59,135 nucleotides of DNA from a virus (IMGVR_UViG_3300037455_000543:1-59135), one strand, 5' to 3'. Numbered from the stretch's first letter, positions 3,771-21,563 are shown. Translations and numbers: made by a program. Notes: a model not told the origin generated them from the sequence alone.

Positions 3771-4238
3771 ATGAAAAATACAAAAGTATTTACCGACGGT
3801 AATGAAGTATCTAAAGCATCAATAGTTCTTTTCGACATTAATGCCCATATAAAAGAAATTGCAAAAAAATATAAAAGTTATGCAATGACTGCTTTTAATG
3901 AGTTTAAAGAAGTCATGTATATTGCTAAAACTGATAAACGATTTAAAGTTACTAAAGGCTTAAAGCTAAAGCAGTCTTTTATTGACAAGACAAAGCAGAC
4001 GCTTGTATTTCATTTTCAGGATGTAGCTGATAAGATTAATTGCGAACTTGTCATGCAACCATTTTGTCGAGAATCTGATAGTCCTGAAGCAGAACTTGAT
4101 TATGGTTATCATCTTTATCTTGAACTGTCAAAAGGTAAATCTGCAGATACAATGTTAGATCCTTGTAGAGATTTTGATGAACGCTATGAAAAATATAAAA
4201 ACGAATTATTGGAAAAAATTAAACGCGATCAAGAATAG
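3771..4238 (+). CDS. Hypothetical protein
   Basis: ORF with SD. Confidence 0.75.
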   Translation: MKNTKVFTDGNEVSKASIVLFDINAHIKEIAKKYKSYAMTAFNEFKEVMYIAKTDKRFKVTKGLKLKQSFIDKTKQTLVFHFQDVADKINCELVMQPFCRESDSPEAELDYGYHLYLELSKGKSADTMLDPCRDFDERYEKYKNELLEKIKRDQE

Positions 4239-13190: not shown

Positions 13191-13195
13191 CTACA

Positions 13196-13276
13196 GGCAG
13201 AGGATGACTGATCATCATTGGATTACTCTTGTCCTACACGGTTTCCTAGGACTAAGGATAGGGCACTCTGCTACCA
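13196..13276 (+). ncRNA. tRNA-like element with acceptor stem and ACCA end but no canonical T-arm
   Basis: GGCAGAG/CTCTGCT then A-CCA; internal hairpins GATGA/TCATC and GTCCTA/TAGGAC. Confidence 0.4.
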
Positions 13277-13407
13277 TTTAGTTCGCAGTGACGCTATGCG
13301 AAAGGGAGGAATCCTAAAATAGCGGTCGTGTTTGTGAGGTAAACAAGGTGGTAGGCCACTAAAGTTTTTCGGTATCTTTGGGTAAAAACCGTAGAAAAGT
13401 TTTTTAT

Positions 13408-13495: not shown

Positions 13496-13502
13496 CTAAA
13501 TA

Positions 13503-13564
13503 GCATAAGAAGTTCCTATACGCCCAGTGGGCATCCGACTTGAAATCAGACTAATTACTTCTCG
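13503..13564 (+). ncRNA. Structured motif shared with the TerD-gene 5' UTR
   Basis: GCATA-AGAAGT-TCCT...CTAATT-ACTTCT-CGC. Confidence 0.55.
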
Positions 13565-13607
13565 CTATTGCGCTTTTAGACTTAGTACGCGTCAAAAAGT
13601 CACTCTT

Positions 13608-13683
13608 CCCGGAGTAGCTCAGTTGGTTCAGTAGCGTTTGAATCATAATCAAAAGGTCGTTGGTTCAAGTCCAACCTCCGGGA
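13608..13683 (+). tRNA. tRNA with CAT anticodon (elongator Met, or Ile2)
   Basis: TTTGA-ATCATAA-TCAAA, acceptor CCCGGAG/CTCCGGG; no initiator features. Confidence 0.88.
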
Positions 13684-13930
13684 CTAAGGATTAGAATTGT
13701 TCCTTAAACAATCAGGATATAGACGAAACAGTCCTTGTTCGTAAAATAATTACTTACAAAGCCTCTCTTGATCCAGTCAATCGATGGATATACTGGTAAG
13801 GAAAATTTACATAGGTGCTAAATTGTTAGACGTATAAGCAGTGAAATTTTAGAGTATGAAAGACTAAGACTGAAGTCGCTATTTAATGTAACACTGGTTA
13901 GAACAAAAACTAAATAAATAGAACTATTAT

Positions 13931-14012
13931 CGGCATATAGTGTAATTGGTTAACACGCCCGTCTGATACGCGGGAAACGATGCTTGTCCTAGTTCGAGTC
14001 TAGGTATGCCGA
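13931..14012 (+). tRNA. tRNA-Ile(GAT), enlarged variable region
   Basis: CCCGT-CTGATAC-GCGGG, acceptor CGGCATA/TATGCCG. Confidence 0.85.
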
Positions 14013-14016
14013 CTAT

Positions 14017-14093
14017 CCACAGGCAATAAGCCGATTGGTGCGGCAGCAAGTCTGATAAACTTGTAAGTGTTTGTTCAAGTCAAACTCTGTGGA
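14017..14093 (+). tRNA. tRNA-Ile(GAT), atypical acceptor-D connector
   Basis: CAAGT-CTGATAA-ACTTG, GTTTG-TTCAAGT-CAAAC. Confidence 0.75.
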
Positions 14094-14104
14094 CTAAAAA
14101 TTAT

Positions 14105-14189
14105 TGAGGATTAACCCTAATGGTAAGGGCCTGGTTTGGAATGCCAGCGTGGGTTTACTCACTTGAAAGTTCGAGTCTTTCATCCTCAG
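14105..14189 (+). tRNA. tRNA-Ser(GGA)
   Basis: CTGGT-TTGGAAT-GCCAG, long variable arm, G73. Confidence 0.9.
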
Positions 14190-14591
14190 CTAATAAATAA
14201 GAAAAGCTATAGGTATCATAACAGACTGTCGGAACCTATACACGTAGCATGCAACGTCGAAGATAAGGTCTAAGATTTATAAGTTTGGGAAAAGGTAAAC
14301 TTATACAGCACGGTTCACTGTGAACTATGAACCATTTTTTAGAATTTGTTTAATTATACTTCTCGATAAAGTATATAATTCATGGTTTGTACAGACTATG
14401 ATTAAATGCGGTGCCCGGCGGTCGGGACTGGCCGAAATCGAAAATGTATCTAGTGATCCTAATAAGTAGTTCTTAAAGGGTGAAACTCTAGTTGCCTTCG
14501 GCTTCGTAAAATGGAGTTCAAACGAAGTCATCCCGGTTTCTGGAATGGTCTACCAAGACAAGTGCCTAACTAGCTCAAGAAACCATTTTAT

Positions 14592-14679
14592 GGCGGTGTG
14601 GCCGAGTGGTTTATGGCTTCCGATTTGAAATCGGACGTGGGTTAACAGCCCACCGTGGGTTCGAATCCTACCACCGCCT
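14592..14679 (+). tRNA. tRNA-Ser(TGA)
   Basis: TCCGA-TTTGAAA-TCGGA, long variable arm. Confidence 0.92.
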
Positions 14680-14688
14680 CGAATTTTT

Positions 14689-14772
14689 GGAAGTGTCCCG
14701 CAACTGGTGGCGGAGCTGCTTCGAACGCAGTGAGTCAGAGATGACTTGGAGGTTCGAATCCTTTCACTTCCG
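14689..14772 (+). tRNA. tRNA-Ser(CGA)
   Basis: GCTGC-TTCGAAC-GCAGT, long variable arm, G73. Confidence 0.9.
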
Positions 14773-14782
14773 TTGTTTTTAT

Positions 14783-14853
14783 TGCCGGTTGGTGTAATGG
14801 CAGCACAGGGGTCTCTGAAGCCCTTAGCATTCGATCGTAACGAGTACCGGCAA
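14783..14853 (+). tRNA. tRNA-Gln(CTG), non-canonical T-loop
   Basis: GGGGT-CTCTGAA-GCCCT, U1-A72, T-loop ATCGTAA. Confidence 0.85.
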
Positions 14854-15040
14854 CTATGCTATATGAGTAGTTTAAAATGGCAACTCACCATTTTAGATGA
14901 AAGAGATATAGACCGTAAAGGACAATGCGTTATCAACCCCGCTGGCACGGCGGTCAGGTGGAGACCGGTGTATTTTTAAGATTTTCAAATAAAAATATCG
15001 TTCATAATCTTGAACGATATTTTTTTATATTTGTATTACT

Positions 15041-15268
15041 ATGAATAAAGAATTAGATACAGAAATTGATAATATTATTGAAACTATGGAAGACGATGAT
15101 TCCGGTTTCGTTTTTAATAAACATATCGCAACATATATTTTTGGAATAGCGATGGGAATTCTTATTTCTCTTGTTATTATCGCTGGTATTGGTGAGTCAC
15201 AGCTTGAACATAAGAATTTTAATGACGTTATTACTTCAACAGAAATTATTCAAACAGAGGGAAATTAA
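15041..15268 (+). CDS. Small membrane protein
   Basis: One TM helix. Confidence 0.7.
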   Translation: MNKELDTEIDNIIETMEDDDSGFVFNKHIATYIFGIAMGILISLVIIAGIGESQLEHKNFNDVITSTEIIQTEGN

Positions 15269-16135
15269 ATGAGTCATTTTACTACATTCGTTATTACTAA
15301 AACCAATGATAGAAAAGAACTTGATAGGTTGATGTTACCATATCATGAATATGAATGCACAGGTATTACAGATTATTGCATTCATGTTGATAGATCAGAA
15401 GAAGCGATTAAGGAATATAATGATCATAAGGAAGATTATACGATTGAAGACTTCTTAGAAAGTTGGTATGGTGTTAATGAAATCTATGAAGAGGAACCTT
15501 CAGAGAAGCCACAAGATTCTTATGCTATTGTAAAAGATGGAGAAATTAAAAAGGTTTATGATTTCACCAATCCTAATCATAAATGGGATTATTATATACC
15601 TTATGACTGGAAAGCATGGAGTTATATTGATGGTTTAAAGGATGAAGATGAACCAGAGACTATTAAGAAGTCACAGTTTAATATCGATCAGTTTATGGCC
15701 GATAAGAGAGATTATTTCTCAGGTCTATATAATAAACTGAAACCATATTTTACACCGGATTTCATTAGCTGGGAACAGGCTCGTAAAGAAAATCCTGAAA
15801 ATATCGATAAAGCTAGAGAAATTTACAATAATCAAAAAAGTATTAAGAAAATGGACAAAGAAATTGGTTCTACTGAAATGTTTCATATTAGATGGTCCAT
15901 TACTGTAGACAATATCGCTTCTATGACCGAAGAAGAGTTTGTGCAGAATAATCTTAGTACAGCAGCACCTTTCTGGGCAATGGTTCTTCCTACTGGAGAA
16001 TGGATTGAAAAAGGCCACATGGGCTGGTGGGCAGTAAGCTGGGATGAGGACGAGAATTTTAATAAAACTTGGACTGAAGTTTGGAAAACTATTCCTGACG
16101 ATTACTATATCTGGCGTTGTGATTGCCATACTTAA
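15269..16135 (+). CDS. Conserved-looking phage hypothetical protein
   Basis: MSHF, NPNHKWDYY, GEWIEKGHMGWW and terminal DCH motifs. Confidence 0.75.
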   Translation: MSHFTTFVITKTNDRKELDRLMLPYHEYECTGITDYCIHVDRSEEAIKEYNDHKEDYTIEDFLESWYGVNEIYEEEPSEKPQDSYAIVKDGEIKKVYDFTNPNHKWDYYIPYDWKAWSYIDGLKDEDEPETIKKSQFNIDQFMADKRDYFSGLYNKLKPYFTPDFISWEQARKENPENIDKAREIYNNQKSIKKMDKEIGSTEMFHIRWSITVDNIASMTEEEFVQNNLSTAAPFWAMVLPTGEWIEKGHMGWWAVSWDEDENFNKTWTEVWKTIPDDYYIWRCDCHT

Positions 16136-16379
16136 TAAGGAGTGATATTTTGAAAAAGATTATATTTGCTTGTTTGTTGTTTTCCGCGTTTGTATTTGCG
16201 AAAGATATGAGAGTCGATGTTTGTCGTGGCGATAATTGCTATACTTATACCGTTCCGGATGCAAAAGATTATCGTTATATCCATGATATGAATGGAAGAA
16301 AGTATCTTAGAATTTTCAAATACAATAATAGAGTTCTCGATATCTTTGTCGACGGTATGACCGTAAAGGTAGGTAAGTA

Positions 16380-16739
16380 ATGTTTTATAACAATTTGGAA
16401 GATGAATGTTGGGATATTAAGGATATTATTAAGCGTAATTTGCTTAACGAGGATGATGAAGAAAAAGAAACATTCATGCTTACAAAGGAAGAAGCACATA
16501 ATATTCTTAATAAGCTCAAGAATATAGAAGACGAATATGATGACATGGTTTCTGACCTTGAAGCTAAAGATGAAGAAATAACTGATTTAGAAAACAAGGT
16601 TGAGGACGTAGAATACTATGATGATGTTCCTGATGAACTTGCAGAGCTATTAAGTCGTTCTGATTTTGACTTGGGAACTGTTATTGAATTGCAAGATGCA
16701 ATAACAAAGGTTCTTAAAGGCAGAGGTTATAGTGTTTAA
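16380..16739 (+). CDS. Acidic coiled-coil hypothetical protein
   Basis: TAATG-coupled ORF. Confidence 0.7.
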   Translation: MFYNNLEDECWDIKDIIKRNLLNEDDEEKETFMLTKEEAHNILNKLKNIEDEYDDMVSDLEAKDEEITDLENKVEDVEYYDDVPDELAELLSRSDFDLGTVIELQDAITKVLKGRGYSV

Positions 16740-17262
16740 AGAACAACTTGTAACAGAAAAGAATATAGATCTTGTCATAGATATGTGGCATAAGATTTTT
16801 CCGGAAGAACAGTTATGGTGCGGATATGAATGTGCTAAGAACTGTTTTGAAAAATCTTTGGACCCAGATGACTTTTTGAAATATTATATTCATTTCGATT
16901 CTACACCTGATAAACCTATGGGTTTTCCAGTCGGTATTTCTGGAATTTATACAGAAAATGCTGAACCTGAATCAGCTTGGCTTGGCTGGTTTGGCGTTCT
17001 TCCTGAATACAGAAGACAAAGATATGGAACCAGAATCATGAATTTTTTCTTACGTCAATGTCGTGATTTCGGTTTTAAGTATGCAAGACTTTATACAGGT
17101 GCTGAAAATATAATAGGTCAAAAATTTTATGAATTTAACGGGTTTACTGGTGAACCAATTCATATTGATTATACAGATGAACCTGAAGACTTGATTATAT
17201 ATTCTAAAACTCTTTGTGATGAACCAGTTCCGCCTTGGAATAATAGGCATCTTGATTTGTAG
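16732..17262 (+). CDS. GNAT acetyltransferase
   Basis: WLGWFGVLPEYRRQRYGT acetyl-CoA motif; FYEFNGF. Confidence 0.85.
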   Translation: MFKEQLVTEKNIDLVIDMWHKIFPEEQLWCGYECAKNCFEKSLDPDDFLKYYIHFDSTPDKPMGFPVGISGIYTENAEPESAWLGWFGVLPEYRRQRYGTRIMNFFLRQCRDFGFKYARLYTGAENIIGQKFYEFNGFTGEPIHIDYTDEPEDLIIYSKTLCDEPVPPWNNRHLDL

Positions 17263-17422
17263 GAATTAAATATGACGTCTCACGAAATTGCAAGAAAAAT
17301 ACTTGAGTTTCCCGATAATGAACTAAAATGTCTTGGTAATACAGAAGAGTTTAATGTCGAGGAAGTAGGTAACTGGAACGACGAATTTGTGTATCTTGCT
17401 ATACACCATGTTGATATTGATT

Positions 17423-17456
17423 AAGGGTTTACAAAAACCCTTTATTTTTTTATATT
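17423..17456 (+). promoter_or_regulatory. Fused terminator / promoter
   Basis: AAGGGTTT-ACAA-AAACCCTT hairpin plus T-run; TTTACA-17-TATATT. Confidence 0.7.
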
Positions 17457-17686
17457 ATATAATATGGGAAAAGAAACTGTTAAGTTAAGAGAATATTCAT
17501 TTGAAATTCAATCGACTGATGATACAAGTGAAACTGTTGGTATTGTAGGTGAAGAATATTCATCAGTATATAGTGATGAAAAATTCTATCGTAAGGAAGA
17601 CGTTGATAAGTTGCTTGCTGAAAAGGATAAGGAAATTAAGCAACTTGAATATCTGTTACACATTTCTTCAAAGATGGCCAGGTAAA

Positions 17687-18094
17687 ATGAAACCTATTTT
17701 TATTAGCGGAAGTTCTTCTATTCATGAACTGAATGAAGATATGATGAAGAACCTTGATGAAATAATCAAGCGTAATATTCCAGTTATTATTGGCGATTGT
17801 TATGGAATTGACTCCTTAGTTCAACGTTATTTTCATGAATGTAACTATAATAATGTAACTGTCTATTATGTAGGTAGTTTTCCTCGTTGTCATTTTCTCG
17901 AATTTAAAAAGCGTGATTGTAACGATAAGGTTACGAATGAAACAGGTCGTGCATTTTATGAAATTAAGGATATCAAGATGACTGAAGACTGTGCTGGTGC
18001 ACTGATGTTCTGGGATGAGAAAAGTCAAGGAACAAAGAATAATATTGAACGTTGTAAGAAGCTTAATAAAAATTATAAGATTATTAAAGGATAA
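17687..18094 (+). CDS. SLOG-superfamily (YspA/DUF2493-like) protein
   Basis: IFISGS, IIGDCYGIDSL, KD..M and WDEKSQGTKNNI motifs. Confidence 0.7.
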   Translation: MKPIFISGSSSIHELNEDMMKNLDEIIKRNIPVIIGDCYGIDSLVQRYFHECNYNNVTVYYVGSFPRCHFLEFKKRDCNDKVTNETGRAFYEIKDIKMTEDCAGALMFWDEKSQGTKNNIERCKKLNKNYKIIKG

Positions 18095-18096
18095 TT

Positions 18097-18918
18097 ATGA
18101 ATTGTAAGGCAGAAAACCTCAAAATTTTTAATGATACACTAAGTAAGATTGACGCCGACAAGGTTCTTCATGAATCTATTCAGAAGTCGGTAATGGATTC
18201 AAAGGTTTATATTGAAAGATATAACAGATTAAAGAAGCCTGAAAATGCACAGGATATTGGTCCTGCAGTTGTCAAGGTAACAAAAAATAGTTCATTTAAT
18301 GCTGCAAGATGTTATAGTGGAAATATTGCAGTTCTTAACTTTGCATCTGCAACTAATCCTGGAGGAGGTGTAACTAAGGGGTCTAATGCACAGGAAGAAT
18401 GTCTTTGTAGATGTTCTACGCTTTATCCTATTCTTAGTGACAGCCGATTTGCACTTCCGTTTTATGAAGATCATAAGCAAAATGGTAATGCTCTTCATAA
18501 TGATGACATTATCTATACTCCGAATGTCTATATTATCAAATCTGATAATTATAGCACATTATATAGACCGTTCAAGGTAAATGTTATTACTTGTGCTGCA
18601 CCTAACCTTAGAGAAACACCTGCAAATGCGTATAACCATGAACGTGGTGAACGTCCGACTATATCTGATAATGAACTTTTGCAGTTGCATGAAAAACGAG
18701 CAAGAGCAATTTTTAATGCTGCACTTGAAAACGGTAATGAAACTATTATTCTTGGTGCATTTGGTTGTGGTGCATTTAGGAATGACCCGGAAATTGTTGC
18801 ACAGGCATACAAAAATGTTCTTCCGGAATATGTAAATAATTTCAAGAATATCGAATTTGCTGTGTTCTGTGGTCATGATAGTTTAAACTATGACACATTT
18901 AAACGAATTTTAGGATAA
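18097..18918 (+). CDS. Microbial PARG / TIGR02452 (DUF2263) macrodomain ADP-ribose glycohydrolase
   Basis: VLNFASATNPGGG...AQEECLCRCSTLY and LGAFGCGAFRN. Confidence 0.9.
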   Translation: MNCKAENLKIFNDTLSKIDADKVLHESIQKSVMDSKVYIERYNRLKKPENAQDIGPAVVKVTKNSSFNAARCYSGNIAVLNFASATNPGGGVTKGSNAQEECLCRCSTLYPILSDSRFALPFYEDHKQNGNALHNDDIIYTPNVYIIKSDNYSTLYRPFKVNVITCAAPNLRETPANAYNHERGERPTISDNELLQLHEKRARAIFNAALENGNETIILGAFGCGAFRNDPEIVAQAYKNVLPEYVNNFKNIEFAVFCGHDSLNYDTFKRILG

Positions 18919-18919
18919 T

Positions 18920-19471
18920 ATGAGTAACGAAATTAATGAATTTGTAAAGTCTGCAATTCTTAATACAAAAAAGAGTGATCCAGATTATTTCAAGAAATGT
19001 CTTGAACAGCGTTTAATTAACGGTCAAGGCAGTGTAACTGAATTCGATAATGTTGAAGATTTGGAAAAGGCTTTACTTAATGCTGACTGGGAAAAATATA
19101 CGCACCCAAATATCGCAGAAGGTTGTTCTGCATATATAACCAAGTCATTTGGCGGTTTCATGGGAATGATTCAGATTGAATATTTATCTGATCAGTTAAT
19201 TTGCCGACTTGATGATATTAAGGGAACTGGAAAGCTTTCATTGACCTGTTATGCTGATCGTGATAGATATCCGGTTGACTATAATATCTTGATTATCGGC
19301 GATGACGGATTTGGTCCGTGTATGTTTACGTTCCATCCTGGTGAACCGCTAAAACCGTCTACTTTATCGTCTGATGGTAATAATGAATTCGGATTGAAAG
19401 AGGGCGATACTATAAATGTGGCGCAAGCTAAAAAATTCGGATTCAAATATGTAAAACTCCTCACAATTTAG
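18920..19471 (+). CDS. Hypothetical protein
   Basis: 183-aa ORF. Confidence 0.75.
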   Translation: MSNEINEFVKSAILNTKKSDPDYFKKCLEQRLINGQGSVTEFDNVEDLEKALLNADWEKYTHPNIAEGCSAYITKSFGGFMGMIQIEYLSDQLICRLDDIKGTGKLSLTCYADRDRYPVDYNILIIGDDGFGPCMFTFHPGEPLKPSTLSSDGNNEFGLKEGDTINVAQAKKFGFKYVKLLTI

Positions 19472-19527
19472 GGGTTTACAAAAGTAAAATCATTTACTAT
19501 ATTTAATCTCACAAAATGAATAAAAAC

Positions 19528-19579
19528 GCATAGAGGGTTCCTTAGAAATGGTTCTAGGAAAAACTGAATTACCCTCCGC
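19528..19579 (+). promoter_or_regulatory. Structured 5' UTR motif (homolog at 13503-13564)
   Basis: GCATA-GAGGGT-TCCT...CTGAATT-ACCCTC-CGC between promoter (19475-19503) and SD. Confidence 0.6.
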
Positions 19580-19595
19580 AAAAAAAGGAAACAAT

Positions 19596-21563
19596 ATGTC
19601 TACATTGTCCAATATGATTAATCTCAAGCTCATCACTATGTTCAACGTTGCACCGATTGCAACTGTTGATTCTCAGAAGCTTTCATTTGATGAAGTTAAC
19701 GCCGAATCGTCTAAGTATGGTTATCTTATTCATCCGGATTGTTGCTCTAAGCTCACGCTTCAGTGGGTTAAGGAAGTTGCACGTACCAATTACAATAAGA
19801 CTTTCTATAAGAAGTGGGAAGATATCACTTCAAAGACTCGTTTCGAGCTCTTGATTGATCAGTTGCGTCATTATGCATCTACCTATGGCACTGGCTTTAC
19901 TGCAGGTAATGGCTATGTTCCGAATAACGGTCCGGATGTTGAAATTCCGTATAATAACTTCAAGGTTATTTTGCCGGCTACTGATCGTGAAATTTACGAT
20001 CGTTGCGTAGGTATGCTTAATAGTGGTATTGCTCTCGAAAGCGACACTGCTGATACTATTTCGACATATGTAATTTTCCATTACAAGAATTCTGGTTTCG
20101 AACTTGATGTTGACAAGATTAAGAATAAGGAAGCACAAGTTAAGTTCTGTGATGAACTTGGTATTACTCCGAAGGATGCATTTGCATTGTTGCGTTATAT
20201 CGTTTATAAGGCAACTGGTAAGTTTATGCTTATCAAGGACCGTGCAACTATCAATGCTTTGAAGGAAAACCAGGATAAGTATTGCATTTCTTTCCTTACT
20301 CATGATCAGAAGGTTGCATTGGCTTCTATCTTCTACAGATTTAAGCCGTTGTTCCTTGCAATGAAGTCTTCGGCTGGTTCTTCTAAGTCCATGATGTCTG
20401 AAGCTTTCAAGAAGGCTGCAGCTAAGATTGGCGTGAAGAAGGTTATGCCGTCTTCTAATGCATCCATTATTAACGAAATCCGTAGACTTGCAAAGACTTA
20501 TCATAAGCCGTTTAAGTCTGGTCTTTGGGAAACTGTCCTTTGTGAAAAGAAGGATCTTGAACAGGTAAAGGCTCATCTTGGTGACATTACTAACTTCAAG
20601 AAGATTACTCTTATGCAGGGCATCATGGCTAAGCTCCAGAAGTGCAATGGTAAGATGTATGTTATCCGTAACGGTAAGATGTGGGTTGACGCTGATTATA
20701 AGCCGAAGAAGGATAACACTTCGTACTTGATGTCTCTTTACAACATTCTTGAACAGTCTGTTGTTGATTCTATCAAGAGCAAGGCAGGTTATGTTGTAAT
20801 GCCGAAGAATGTTCATTTCACTGTTCCGACTTCTGAAAAGAACTTCATTGGTAACTATCCGTTTGGTACTAACGTTGACCTTGGTGACAAGAATAACGTT
20901 GTTGGTATCTATTGGAGAAATGAATGGGGAACTCGTGACTTTGACCTTCATATGATGGATATGCATGGTAACAACTACGGTTGGAACTCTAGCTATACCA
21001 ATGGCAAGAATACTGTCATCTATTCTGGTGATATGACTAATGCTGAACCGGAAGCAACCGAATTGTTCTATTTCTCTAAGGAAATTGGGTCTGGTAAGGT
21101 TTCTGTTAACCAGTTCTCTGGTAATCCGGTATCTCAGTTTAAGCTCTTTGTGGCAACTGAAGATATGAGATCTAAGCTTGGTTGTGATGGCTTCGGTCGT
21201 CGTACTGGTGGTCATGTTGTCATGTGTGATCCGAACAATGTTAAGGCTGAATTCATGATTCCGGTTGACCATGAAAGCTGCAAGGAATGTGCATTGATTA
21301 GCGATAATAAGATTTATCTTATGGACCTTACTTCGGGTTGTGGTCGTGTTCCGAACTACAAGTATAACGATGTTTACTTGGAACAGATCGAAATCAAGTG
21401 CCGTACATTCATCAACTTGGAAGACATTCTTCTCAAGGCTGGATGCACCTTGGTTAACGAACTTCCGGAAGCTAAGGAAGGCGAAGCAGCACCGACTGCT
21501 GTGCTTGACTTGACTAATCCGGCAAAGGACTCGCTCATCAAGTTCTTCAGCGATGAAAAGTAA
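19596..21563 (+). CDS. Large helical protein with C-terminal TerD-like domain
   Basis: LLIDQLRHYASTYG; VGIYW..RDFDLH..GWN..YSGDMTNA..ATE (TerD-like); SD AAGGA before ATG 19596; strong codon bias. Confidence 0.65.
   Translation: MSTLSNMINLKLITMFNVAPIATVDSQKLSFDEVNAESSKYGYLIHPDCCSKLTLQWVKEVARTNYNKTFYKKWEDITSKTRFELLIDQLRHYASTYGTGFTAGNGYVPNNGPDVEIPYNNFKVILPATDREIYDRCVGMLNSGIALESDTADTISTYVIFHYKNSGFELDVDKIKNKEAQVKFCDELGITPKDAFALLRYIVYKATGKFMLIKDRATINALKENQDKYCISFLTHDQKVALASIFYRFKPLFLAMKSSAGSSKSMMSEAFKKAAAKIGVKKVMPSSNASIINEIRRLAKTYHKPFKSGLWETVLCEKKDLEQVKAHLGDITNFKKITLMQGIMAKLQKCNGKMYVIRNGKMWVDADYKPKKDNTSYLMSLYNILEQSVVDSIKSKAGYVVMPKNVHFTVPTSEKNFIGNYPFGTNVDLGDKNNVVGIYWRNEWGTRDFDLHMMDMHGNNYGWNSSYTNGKNTVIYSGDMTNAEPEATELFYFSKEIGSGKVSVNQFSGNPVSQFKLFVATEDMRSKLGCDGFGRRTGGHVVMCDPNNVKAEFMIPVDHESCKECALISDNKIYLMDLTSGCGRVPNYKYNDVYLEQIEIKCRTFINLEDILLKAGCTLVNELPEAKEGEAAPTAVLDLTNPAKDSLIKFFSDEK

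Follow-up and report, generated by a model that had tools for sequence, protein, structure and literature searches.

A structured RNA motif shared by a phage tRNA cluster and the leader of a TerD-like-domain protein gene looks like a counterpart of the Ro60/Y-RNA particle

Introduction

This study concerns a small structured RNA, which we call the handle, found twice in a stretch of 59,135 nucleotides (IMGVR_UViG_3300037455_000543:1-59135; hereafter, the window) that corresponds to the opening 59 kb of a phage record, which is 424,163 bp long and has direct terminal repeats. One copy (copy 1) is located in a tRNA gene cluster, and the other (copy 2) in the 5' leader of the gene for a 655-amino-acid protein (P0001) with a TerD-like domain. 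The two copies are members of one RNA family, which is undescribed and has no match in Rfam; members of this family adjoin the genes of P0001 relatives in phages and in flavobacteria, where RtcB, the tRNA-splicing ligase, is usually encoded nearby. We judge, with a probability of about 0.6, that the handle is the recognition module for P0001, serving both in a stable RNA-protein particle and in the leader of the protein's own message. The simplest form of this reading is that the protein would physically dock on the handle.

Results

Two copies of one motif, and further copies elsewhere in the phage genome

A first-pass annotation of the window, made from its sequence, had claimed that the same motif occurs at positions 13503 and 19528 with 6-bp stems that differ by compensatory changes. 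The claim was borne out: both stems are fully complementary over 6 bp, four of the six pairs differ between the copies (GAGGGT at 19533-19538 pairs with ACCCTC at 19571-19576 in copy 2), and both copies were detected by a covariance model, R2, built from 62 handles of distant loci with this phage and its close relatives excluded. The source loci of R2 either encode a protein at most 45% identical to P0001 or are bacterial. Over the whole genome, R2 scored copy 2 at 40.0 bits (E = 2.9e-9) and copy 1 at 35.2 bits (E = 1e-7); with another model, R1, whose training set includes both copies, the next-best match in the window scored 11.6 bits. A composite pattern of conserved flanks and complementary stem had exactly two matches in the 424,163-bp genome and none in the reversed-sequence control. 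Since the 5'-half motif alone, with one mismatch allowed, was not enriched (17 matches vs 12.8 expected), the specificity lies in the flanks and the pairing combined.

Besides copies 1 and 2, the genome scan with R2 returned six more standalone handles, and a pattern scan added one standalone handle with a tRNA-sized insert and four permuted handles inside tRNA-like genes, for a total of 13 in the phage genome. The 11 that lie outside the window are found at G000:414500-423420 and G000:320300-320500, where G000 denotes the phage genome. In the permuted handles the order is 3' half, loop and 5' half, and ARAGORN reads their hosts as intron-bearing tRNA-Pro, tRNA-Arg and tRNA-Ser; the 'intron' reading was dropped, as the spliced products would have weak anticodon stems. 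The standalone handle at 414762 surrounds an entire tRNA-like sequence. Against Rfam, neither gathering scores nor a cutoff of E 10 (used for both copies) gave a family for the handle: the window, the two copies and ten related loci had just tRNA or chance-level rows. When the phage collection was searched at the nucleotide level, the region of copy 1 gave a tRNA-Met match only, and the leader region gave none.

The handle is a covarying RNA family

An alignment of 67 handle copies from many loci revealed a common architecture. From 5' to 3', it consists of a closing pair (N-N'), an invariant C-G pair, an A-W-A bulge opposite a single C, a 6-bp stem in which the last two pairs are nearly always G-C and U-A, an invariant UCCU that is usually followed by A/U and then U, an insert of ~10 to >90 nucleotides (nt), a U, and the 3' strand of the stem. 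The 5' consensus reads GCAWA-N4GU-UCCUA, and on the 3' side the only conserved positions are the U before AC, the AC itself, and C-GC. It is to be noted that the first-pass annotation had described the unpaired parts as conserved; this holds for UCCU, the AWA bulge, U-AC and C-GC, but not for the CT(G)AATT stretch, which is not conserved in the family.

The pairing is well documented by the same alignment. Over the eight pairs of the 67 sequences, all 536 of 536 cells were standard pairs, and six of the eight pairs showed double changes. The outermost pair, which was unused in the selection of the sequences, was G-C in 54, A-U in 10 and U-A in three, and was never unpaired. When sites were chosen by the 5' half alone, 96 of 107 had their own complementary 3' strand followed by CG, compared with 18% when the stem of another site was used. 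The stems amount to 37 distinct sequences, and the closing helix usually extends beyond the core by 4-9 further pairs. A second helix, UCC:GGA, was considered as a family-wide feature and rejected, with GGA occurring in 11 of 62 inserts; the leader copies of this lineage do have it.

The insert is the variable part. An anticodon-arm-like hairpin was present in 29 of 140 inserts (12.8 expected), and a T-loop in 16. Display of tRNA parts is therefore better regarded as a frequent addition to the handle than as its core function, since only a minority of the inserts have them.

The handle is linked to genes of the P0001 family

Homologs 26-90% identical to P0001 were compared in 61 viral and 56 genome-derived loci; the contigs of the phage's relatives are all metagenome-derived viral records. 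The motif, whose absence near homologous genes the first-pass annotation had named as counting against its proposal, is present beside homologs across this range of identity, in phages and in bacterial chromosomes alike. The gene is immediately preceded, or in fewer cases closely followed, by one to six handles. By a strict pattern, at least 83 of 111 usable loci had a same-strand handle no more than 800 nt away, and several of the 'empty' loci carry handle variants that this pattern misses. Of its 147 matches, 134 fell inside the 800-nt same-strand zones, which comprise 16% of the bases, and two were on the opposite strand. The model was also run on five complete flavobacterial genomes of 4.4-5.5 Mb, where each of its 13 hits (E <=0.01) was located just upstream of the single homolog; this phage likewise has one gene for the 655-residue protein. 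Because of this strict co-location, we predict with high confidence that handle and protein are functional partners.

The bacterial neighborhoods add a second association. Of seven flavobacterial loci, six encode RtcB within 6 kb of the homolog, as does one phage locus. The gene order in Tenacibaculum is RtcB, an RF-1-domain (PrfH-like) protein, a TPR protein, the handles, the homolog and, behind it, an RNase T-like exonuclease; a gene for a Band 7 protein comes later. In Chryseobacterium, the handles and the homolog are located after genes for a WYL-WCX regulator and RtcB. Literature searches on RtcB with TerD or PrfH found no description of the pairing, although the RNA-repair survey of Burroughs and Aravind (2016) may mention it. 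TROVE is missing from four of the five bacterial genomes that carry handle and homolog. Directly upstream of the bacterial homologs, and among their handles, there are also Rfam tRNA-model matches of 107-121 nt (L129:5402-5516, L129:5569-5689 and L125:5627-5733, the L numbers designating loci), which are tRNA look-alikes with inserts of ~40 nt.

The partner protein combines a predicted new domain with a TerD-like fold

The P0001 family has at least 2,379 members. P0001 itself matched no family in Pfam, PHROGs, NCBIfam or PADLOC, and had no sequence relative in the PDB. Its AlphaFold model (pLDDT 85, pTM 0.81) offered a clearer view: residues 430-579 are modeled as a TerD-like β-sandwich, aligning by VIA-align with 2QZ7 (2QZ7_B) at Z 8.2 and a root-mean-square deviation of 3.0 over 121 residues. 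Other TerD matches of the C-terminal domain were 2KXT (Z 7.4; like that of 2QZ7_B, over residues 428-579) and 3IBZ (Foldseek probability 1.00), and in the nearest named Atlas cluster 22% of the members carry TerD. None of 32 family members matched Pfam TerD (PF02342), even with E relaxed to 1; the label of TerD-domain protein given in the first-pass annotation thus stands at the level of fold, but not at that of the Pfam family. With regard to the calcium-binding acidic motifs of TerD, the residues D448, D450, G478-D479 and E489 of this domain are invariant in the P0001 family.

The N-terminal 420 residues folded alone with a pLDDT of 75.5, and fold searches with them returned only the protein's own family in the Atlas and generic helical-hairpin rows (Z <=6.2) in the PDB. 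On the strength of these models, the N-terminal ~420 residues are predicted to be a new domain. The prospect, raised in the first-pass annotation, that structure prediction would reveal a TROVE-like RNA-binding fold did not materialize. TROVE (Pfam PF05731) had no hit at E 1 in P0001 and 31 relatives, nor was any found across the phage genome, where control genomes gave hits; profile comparison of P0001 with a Chryseobacterium TROVE protein gave a probability of 0.16%. No Ro60 chain was among the listed fold matches of the whole or the N-terminal model, although an absent match does not exclude a Ro60 fold. A search for fused or split forms of the protein family found no longer forms, and the shorter ones were mostly fragments at contig ends.

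These properties bear on the main rival explanation, namely that the handle is a processing signal at which the protein, as an enzyme, cuts or joins RNA, splicing or circularizing it together with RtcB; the handle hairpins would then be excised from the permuted tRNA-like genes, or the inserts of the standalone copies would be freed. The four permuted copies inside tRNA-like genes with their ARAGORN 'introns', the 107-121-nt tRNA matches upstream of bacterial homologs, the presence of RtcB in the phage and, as a neighbor of the homolog, in bacteria, and the many invariant polar residues of the protein family would all suit such an enzyme. Nonetheless, no nuclease or ligase fold or family was found for P0001, removal of the hairpin leaves no convincing anticodon stem in the two cases that were read, and most handles are bare, standing in tandem before the gene with nothing obvious to splice. 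We therefore consider this explanation unlikely.

Copy 1 displays a look-alike of an anticodon arm

Copy 1 lies between tRNA-Cys (ending at 13496) and tRNA-Met (starting at 13608), and folding of the flanked stretch closes it with an outer helix of 6 bp (13499-13504 with 13564-13569). Its tRNA-like parts are a D-like hairpin and an anticodon-like arm only. The first-pass annotation had recognized the latter as nearly identical to the anticodon arm of tRNA-Ser(UGA), and this was substantiated: 15 of 17 positions are identical to the phage's own tRNA-Ser(UGA), which is the top match among the 55 tRNA genes predicted in the phage genome. For comparison, the arms of tRNAs with differing anticodons share on average 11.9 of 17 positions, and at most 14. 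The central stem pair of the copy 1 arm is a C.A mismatch, where the genuine tRNA-Ser(UGA) has C-G. In the handle at 423355, the arm (G000:423381-423397) resembles that of tRNA-Cys (14 of 17, GCA type) and has an A.C mismatch at the same central pair.

The core of copy 1 is identical over 63 of 63 positions in four relatives, in two of which the protein is just 61% identical, and in a fifth relative the differences are confined to the loop region of the small hairpin. Judged by sequence, such conservation is the pattern of a functional RNA. It also bears on the explanation that copy 1 is a decayed tRNA gene and that its likeness to the leader element is a coincidence. Copy 1 does stand in a tRNA array and has kept an anticodon arm; however, it has no T arm and no acceptor stem, it was called as a tRNA neither by ARAGORN nor by the Rfam tRNA model, and it is invariant across diverged phages. 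Considering in addition that both copies are detected by the independent model R2, and that the stem covaries over its 37 sequences, we find decay very hard to credit.

The 13510-13522 segment within copy 1 reads GAAGTTCCTATAC, which we take to be identical to one arm of the yeast FLP recombinase target (FRT). This likeness is most likely a coincidence, since only its GTTCCTA portion is conserved in the handle family, but it could set off vector-contamination filters.

Copy 2 stands in the leader of the protein gene

Copy 2 has no tRNA part in its insert, which forms an inner hairpin instead; in eight relatives the CCTA...TAGG of this hairpin is kept, while the 8-14 nt in between are variable. 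Its closing helix has only 2 bp and is followed by A7 and AAGGA. The leader handle is retained upstream of homologs with 61-90% identity, the stems being GAGGGT/ACCCTC, GAGAGT/ACTCTC and GAAAGT/ACTTTT. The last of these contains a G.U pair and therefore points to an RNA read from the + strand. The two hexamers of the promoter upstream of the leader (Table 1) are invariant in the leaders of six relatives. As the handle ends only 6 nt from the ribosome-binding site, the leader copy is consistent with feedback control, although simple co-expression would fit as well.

Such a position also invites a second rival explanation, in which the handle is mainly a cis-acting leader element (an attenuator, a ligand sensor or a stabilizer of the mRNA) that is reused by the copies in the tRNA cluster, no stable particle being formed. 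It would account for the last handle usually ending 20-35 nt before the start codon, for the outer stem with a U run, resembling an intrinsic terminator, in several loci (such as L038, L052 and L053), and for the conserved promoter just upstream in this lineage. It accommodates less readily that one to six handles stand in tandem, every one closed by a separate stem, that some handles are downstream of the gene, that the tRNA arrays of this phage hold twelve further copies at a great distance from it, and that copy 1 is perfectly conserved in the manner of a stable RNA; moreover, the leader handle of the window precedes an A run, not a U run. On balance, a purely cis-acting role appears improbable, to about the same degree as the processing signal. 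In other lineages, the long closing stems and U runs of the upstream handles suggest that these may double as leaky terminators. Two loci of the 61%-identity lineage, L021 and L024 (~3950-3975), have GCGATA-GCGAT and a U run after the leader handle; the 5' strand ATCGC could thus pair with either of two partners, an arrangement resembling an attenuator-type switch.

Discussion

How a handle-protein particle might operate

If the handle, with its paired ends, its A-W-A/C internal loop and its single-stranded UCCUA after the stem, is the recognition module of P0001, the following course of events may be proposed. Copy 1 would probably be cut from the transcript of the tRNA cluster to yield a stable RNA of ~70 nt, the handle of which would dock the protein, while the insert would present the D-like hairpin and the look-alike of the tRNA-Ser(UGA) anticodon arm. 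Through copy 2, at the start of its own mRNA, the protein could bind its message and limit translation when free handle RNAs are scarce; alternatively, the leader might do no more than serve as a further source of handle RNA. As has been proposed for Ro60 with Y RNAs, the particle would be a decoy, a sensor or a repair platform for tRNA that is damaged or under attack. Autoregulation through the leader and a role related to tRNA are thus conjectural parts of the scheme.

Several observations weigh against the recognition of the handle by P0001. The protein has no recognizable RNA-binding domain, and TerD proteins are known as calcium-binding stress proteins, not as RNA binders. Handles in other genomes mostly have short inserts and no tRNA parts. 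In the leader copy, the fold pairs UCCU with AGGA, which would hinder recognition if the protein reads single-stranded UCCUA. Lastly, the RtcB gene of this phage lies ~106 kb from the P0001 gene.

Comparison with known systems

In Salmonella, the operon rsr-yrlBA-rtcBA joins a Ro60 protein, Y RNAs and RtcB, and has a published link to damaged tRNA (Hughes et al. 2020, PMC7790460). In light of this link and of the RtcB context described above, a decoy or sensor role for the arm look-alike of copy 1 is attractive. In some jumbo phages, TROVE proteins with tRNA-like partners have been recorded (survey PMC7824862). The likeness of the handle to the Y RNAs (YrlA, YrlB, Yrn1) and their Ro60 protein is one of layout: a small RNA with paired ends and a stem that bears a conserved asymmetric loop, a variable module imitating parts of tRNA, one to several RNA genes adjoining the protein gene on the same strand with RtcB nearby in bacteria, and occurrence in large phages. 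The differences are equally clear. Pfam, profile comparison and fold searches yielded no TROVE or vWA domain in P0001; the handle lacks the Ro60-binding motif on the 5' strand of the Y RNA stem, which is GNCGAAN0-1G in bacteria and GGUCCGA in vertebrates (Chen et al. 2014, PMC4201824); tRNA mimicry in YrlA concerns the D arm, T arm and acceptor stem, but in copy 1 the arm on display is an anticodon arm; and, unlike Y RNA and YrlA, the handles match no Rfam family.

By analogy, then, handle and protein may work like Ro60 and Y RNA without being a member of that system, as protein and RNA motif fail every sequence-based membership test. The parallel with Ro60 and Y RNA drawn in the first-pass annotation accordingly gains from the RtcB repair-operon neighbors in flavobacteria and loses from the lack of any TROVE-like signal in sequence or fold. 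Because the handle family adjoins relatives of the protein in phages and bacteria, often beside RNA-repair genes, the system looks like an independent counterpart of the Ro60/Y-RNA particle. One may go a step further and imagine a second, independently evolved Ro60/Y-RNA-like system, in which a new RNA-docking domain joined to a TerD-like domain would hold handles that present anticodon arms or look-alikes of entire tRNAs as bait or sensors for anticodon-cutting nucleases, feeding RtcB repair; phages would thereby protect translation, in bacteria it would form part of a repair operon, and through the leader handle the protein would adjust its own amount. We offer this extended picture only tentatively, with odds clearly below even.

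Three other comparisons are instructive. First of all, the fold of residues 430-579 is that of TerD proteins such as Klebsiella TerD (2KXT), Streptomyces SCO6318 (2QZ7) and 3IBZ, but in P0001 the domain is fused to a 420-residue domain of no known fold, and its genomic partners are RNAs and RNA-repair genes rather than a ter operon. Second, autoregulatory mRNA operators may copy the RNA ligand of a protein, as do the E. coli thrS operator, which imitates the anticodon arm of tRNA-Thr, and ribosomal-protein leaders. Like these, the handle is one module present both in a free RNA and in the leader of its presumed binder's mRNA, a few bases before the ribosome-binding site; unlike these, the upstream handles of other loci resemble separate small RNA genes, and regulation is here surmised from position. 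Third, the tRNA gene cluster of phage T4 encodes the small stable RNAs species 1 and 2; copy 1 is similarly a non-tRNA small RNA lodged among phage tRNAs in a transcription unit, from which the enzymes of tRNA processing presumably set it free, and we know of no partner protein for the T4 RNAs.

The handle system provides the layout of Ro60/Y-RNA particles, tRNA-like parts included, with an unrelated protein and an unrelated RNA. With it, an RNA family and a protein family are newly defined, and a TerD-like domain is placed in an RNA-linked context. If the convergence is true, a docking stem, a tRNA mimic and RtcB would together constitute a general answer to tRNA damage in phage-host conflict. 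Members of the P0001 family are present in phages of the rumen and gut as well as in flavobacteria that can be cultured (Chryseobacterium, Tenacibaculum), the latter offering a tractable bacterial model.

Feature coordinates and other observations

Table 1 Positions of the features in the window, counted from its first nucleotide
Feature	Position	Strand	Sequence, basis or remark
Copy 1, small RNA of ~71 nt	13499..13569	+	Sequence, fold of flanked stretch, R2 match
Copy 1 core	13503-13565	+	GCATA-AGAAGT-TCCTAT ... CTAATT-ACTTCT-CGC
Copy 1, 5' half of handle	13503..13519	+	G-C, bulge ATA, strand AGAAGT (13508-13513), UCCUAU (13514-13519)
Copy 1, hairpin at D-arm position	13522..13532	+	GCCC-AGT-GGGC; stem kept and loop GTTA in relative L014
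Copy 1, anticodon-arm mimic	13534..13550	+	TCCGA-CTTGAAA-TCAGA; UGA at anticodon position 13541-13543
Copy 1, 3' half of handle	13556..13565	+	U, strand ACTTCT (13557-13562), C, G-C
Genuine tRNA-Ser(UGA)	14592..14680	+	Arm TCCGA-TTTGAAA-TCGGA, imitated by copy 1 arm
Sigma-70-like promoter	19475..19503	+	TTTACA-17-TATATT, upstream of leader
Copy 2, handle in 5' leader of P0001 gene	19528..19579	+	GCATA-GAGGGT-TCCTTA ... CTGAATT-ACCCTC-CGC; R2 match
Copy 2, inner hairpin	19539..19559	+	Fold; conserved UCCU pairs with AGGA
Ribosome-binding stretch and start codon	19585..19598	+	AAGGA 19585-19589, start codon 19596-19598; 6 and 17 nt past handle
P0001 gene (655 aa)	19596..21563	+	Sole copy in genome; N-terminal ~1-420 unmatched, TerD-like 430-579

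Just upstream of the leader, the window encodes a GNAT acetyltransferase (16732-17262) and a microbial-type PARG (18097-18918), an ADP-ribose-removing enzyme; in Flagellimonas, a GNAT gene also follows the homolog (L132:8253-8681). The TTTACA-17-TATATT pair occurs twice in the window (17428-17456 and 19475-19503), each time after GGGT/GGGGT, and may represent a phage promoter class. Outside the window, at G000:122965-123660, ARAGORN called a tmRNA (tag ANTYAMAA) and an overlapping 'tRNA-Leu with a 612-nt intron'.

Within the tRNA array, a partial Rfam tRNA match (14029-14085; 29.2 bits, model positions 9-63) is located between tRNA-Ile and tRNA-Ser(GGA); it has no ARAGORN call and may be a truncated tRNA or another RNA made of tRNA parts. 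Three spacers of the array (13192-13407, 13685-13930 and 14191-14591; 216, 246 and 401 nt, respectively) contain no tRNA and no Rfam match, and could hold further small RNAs.

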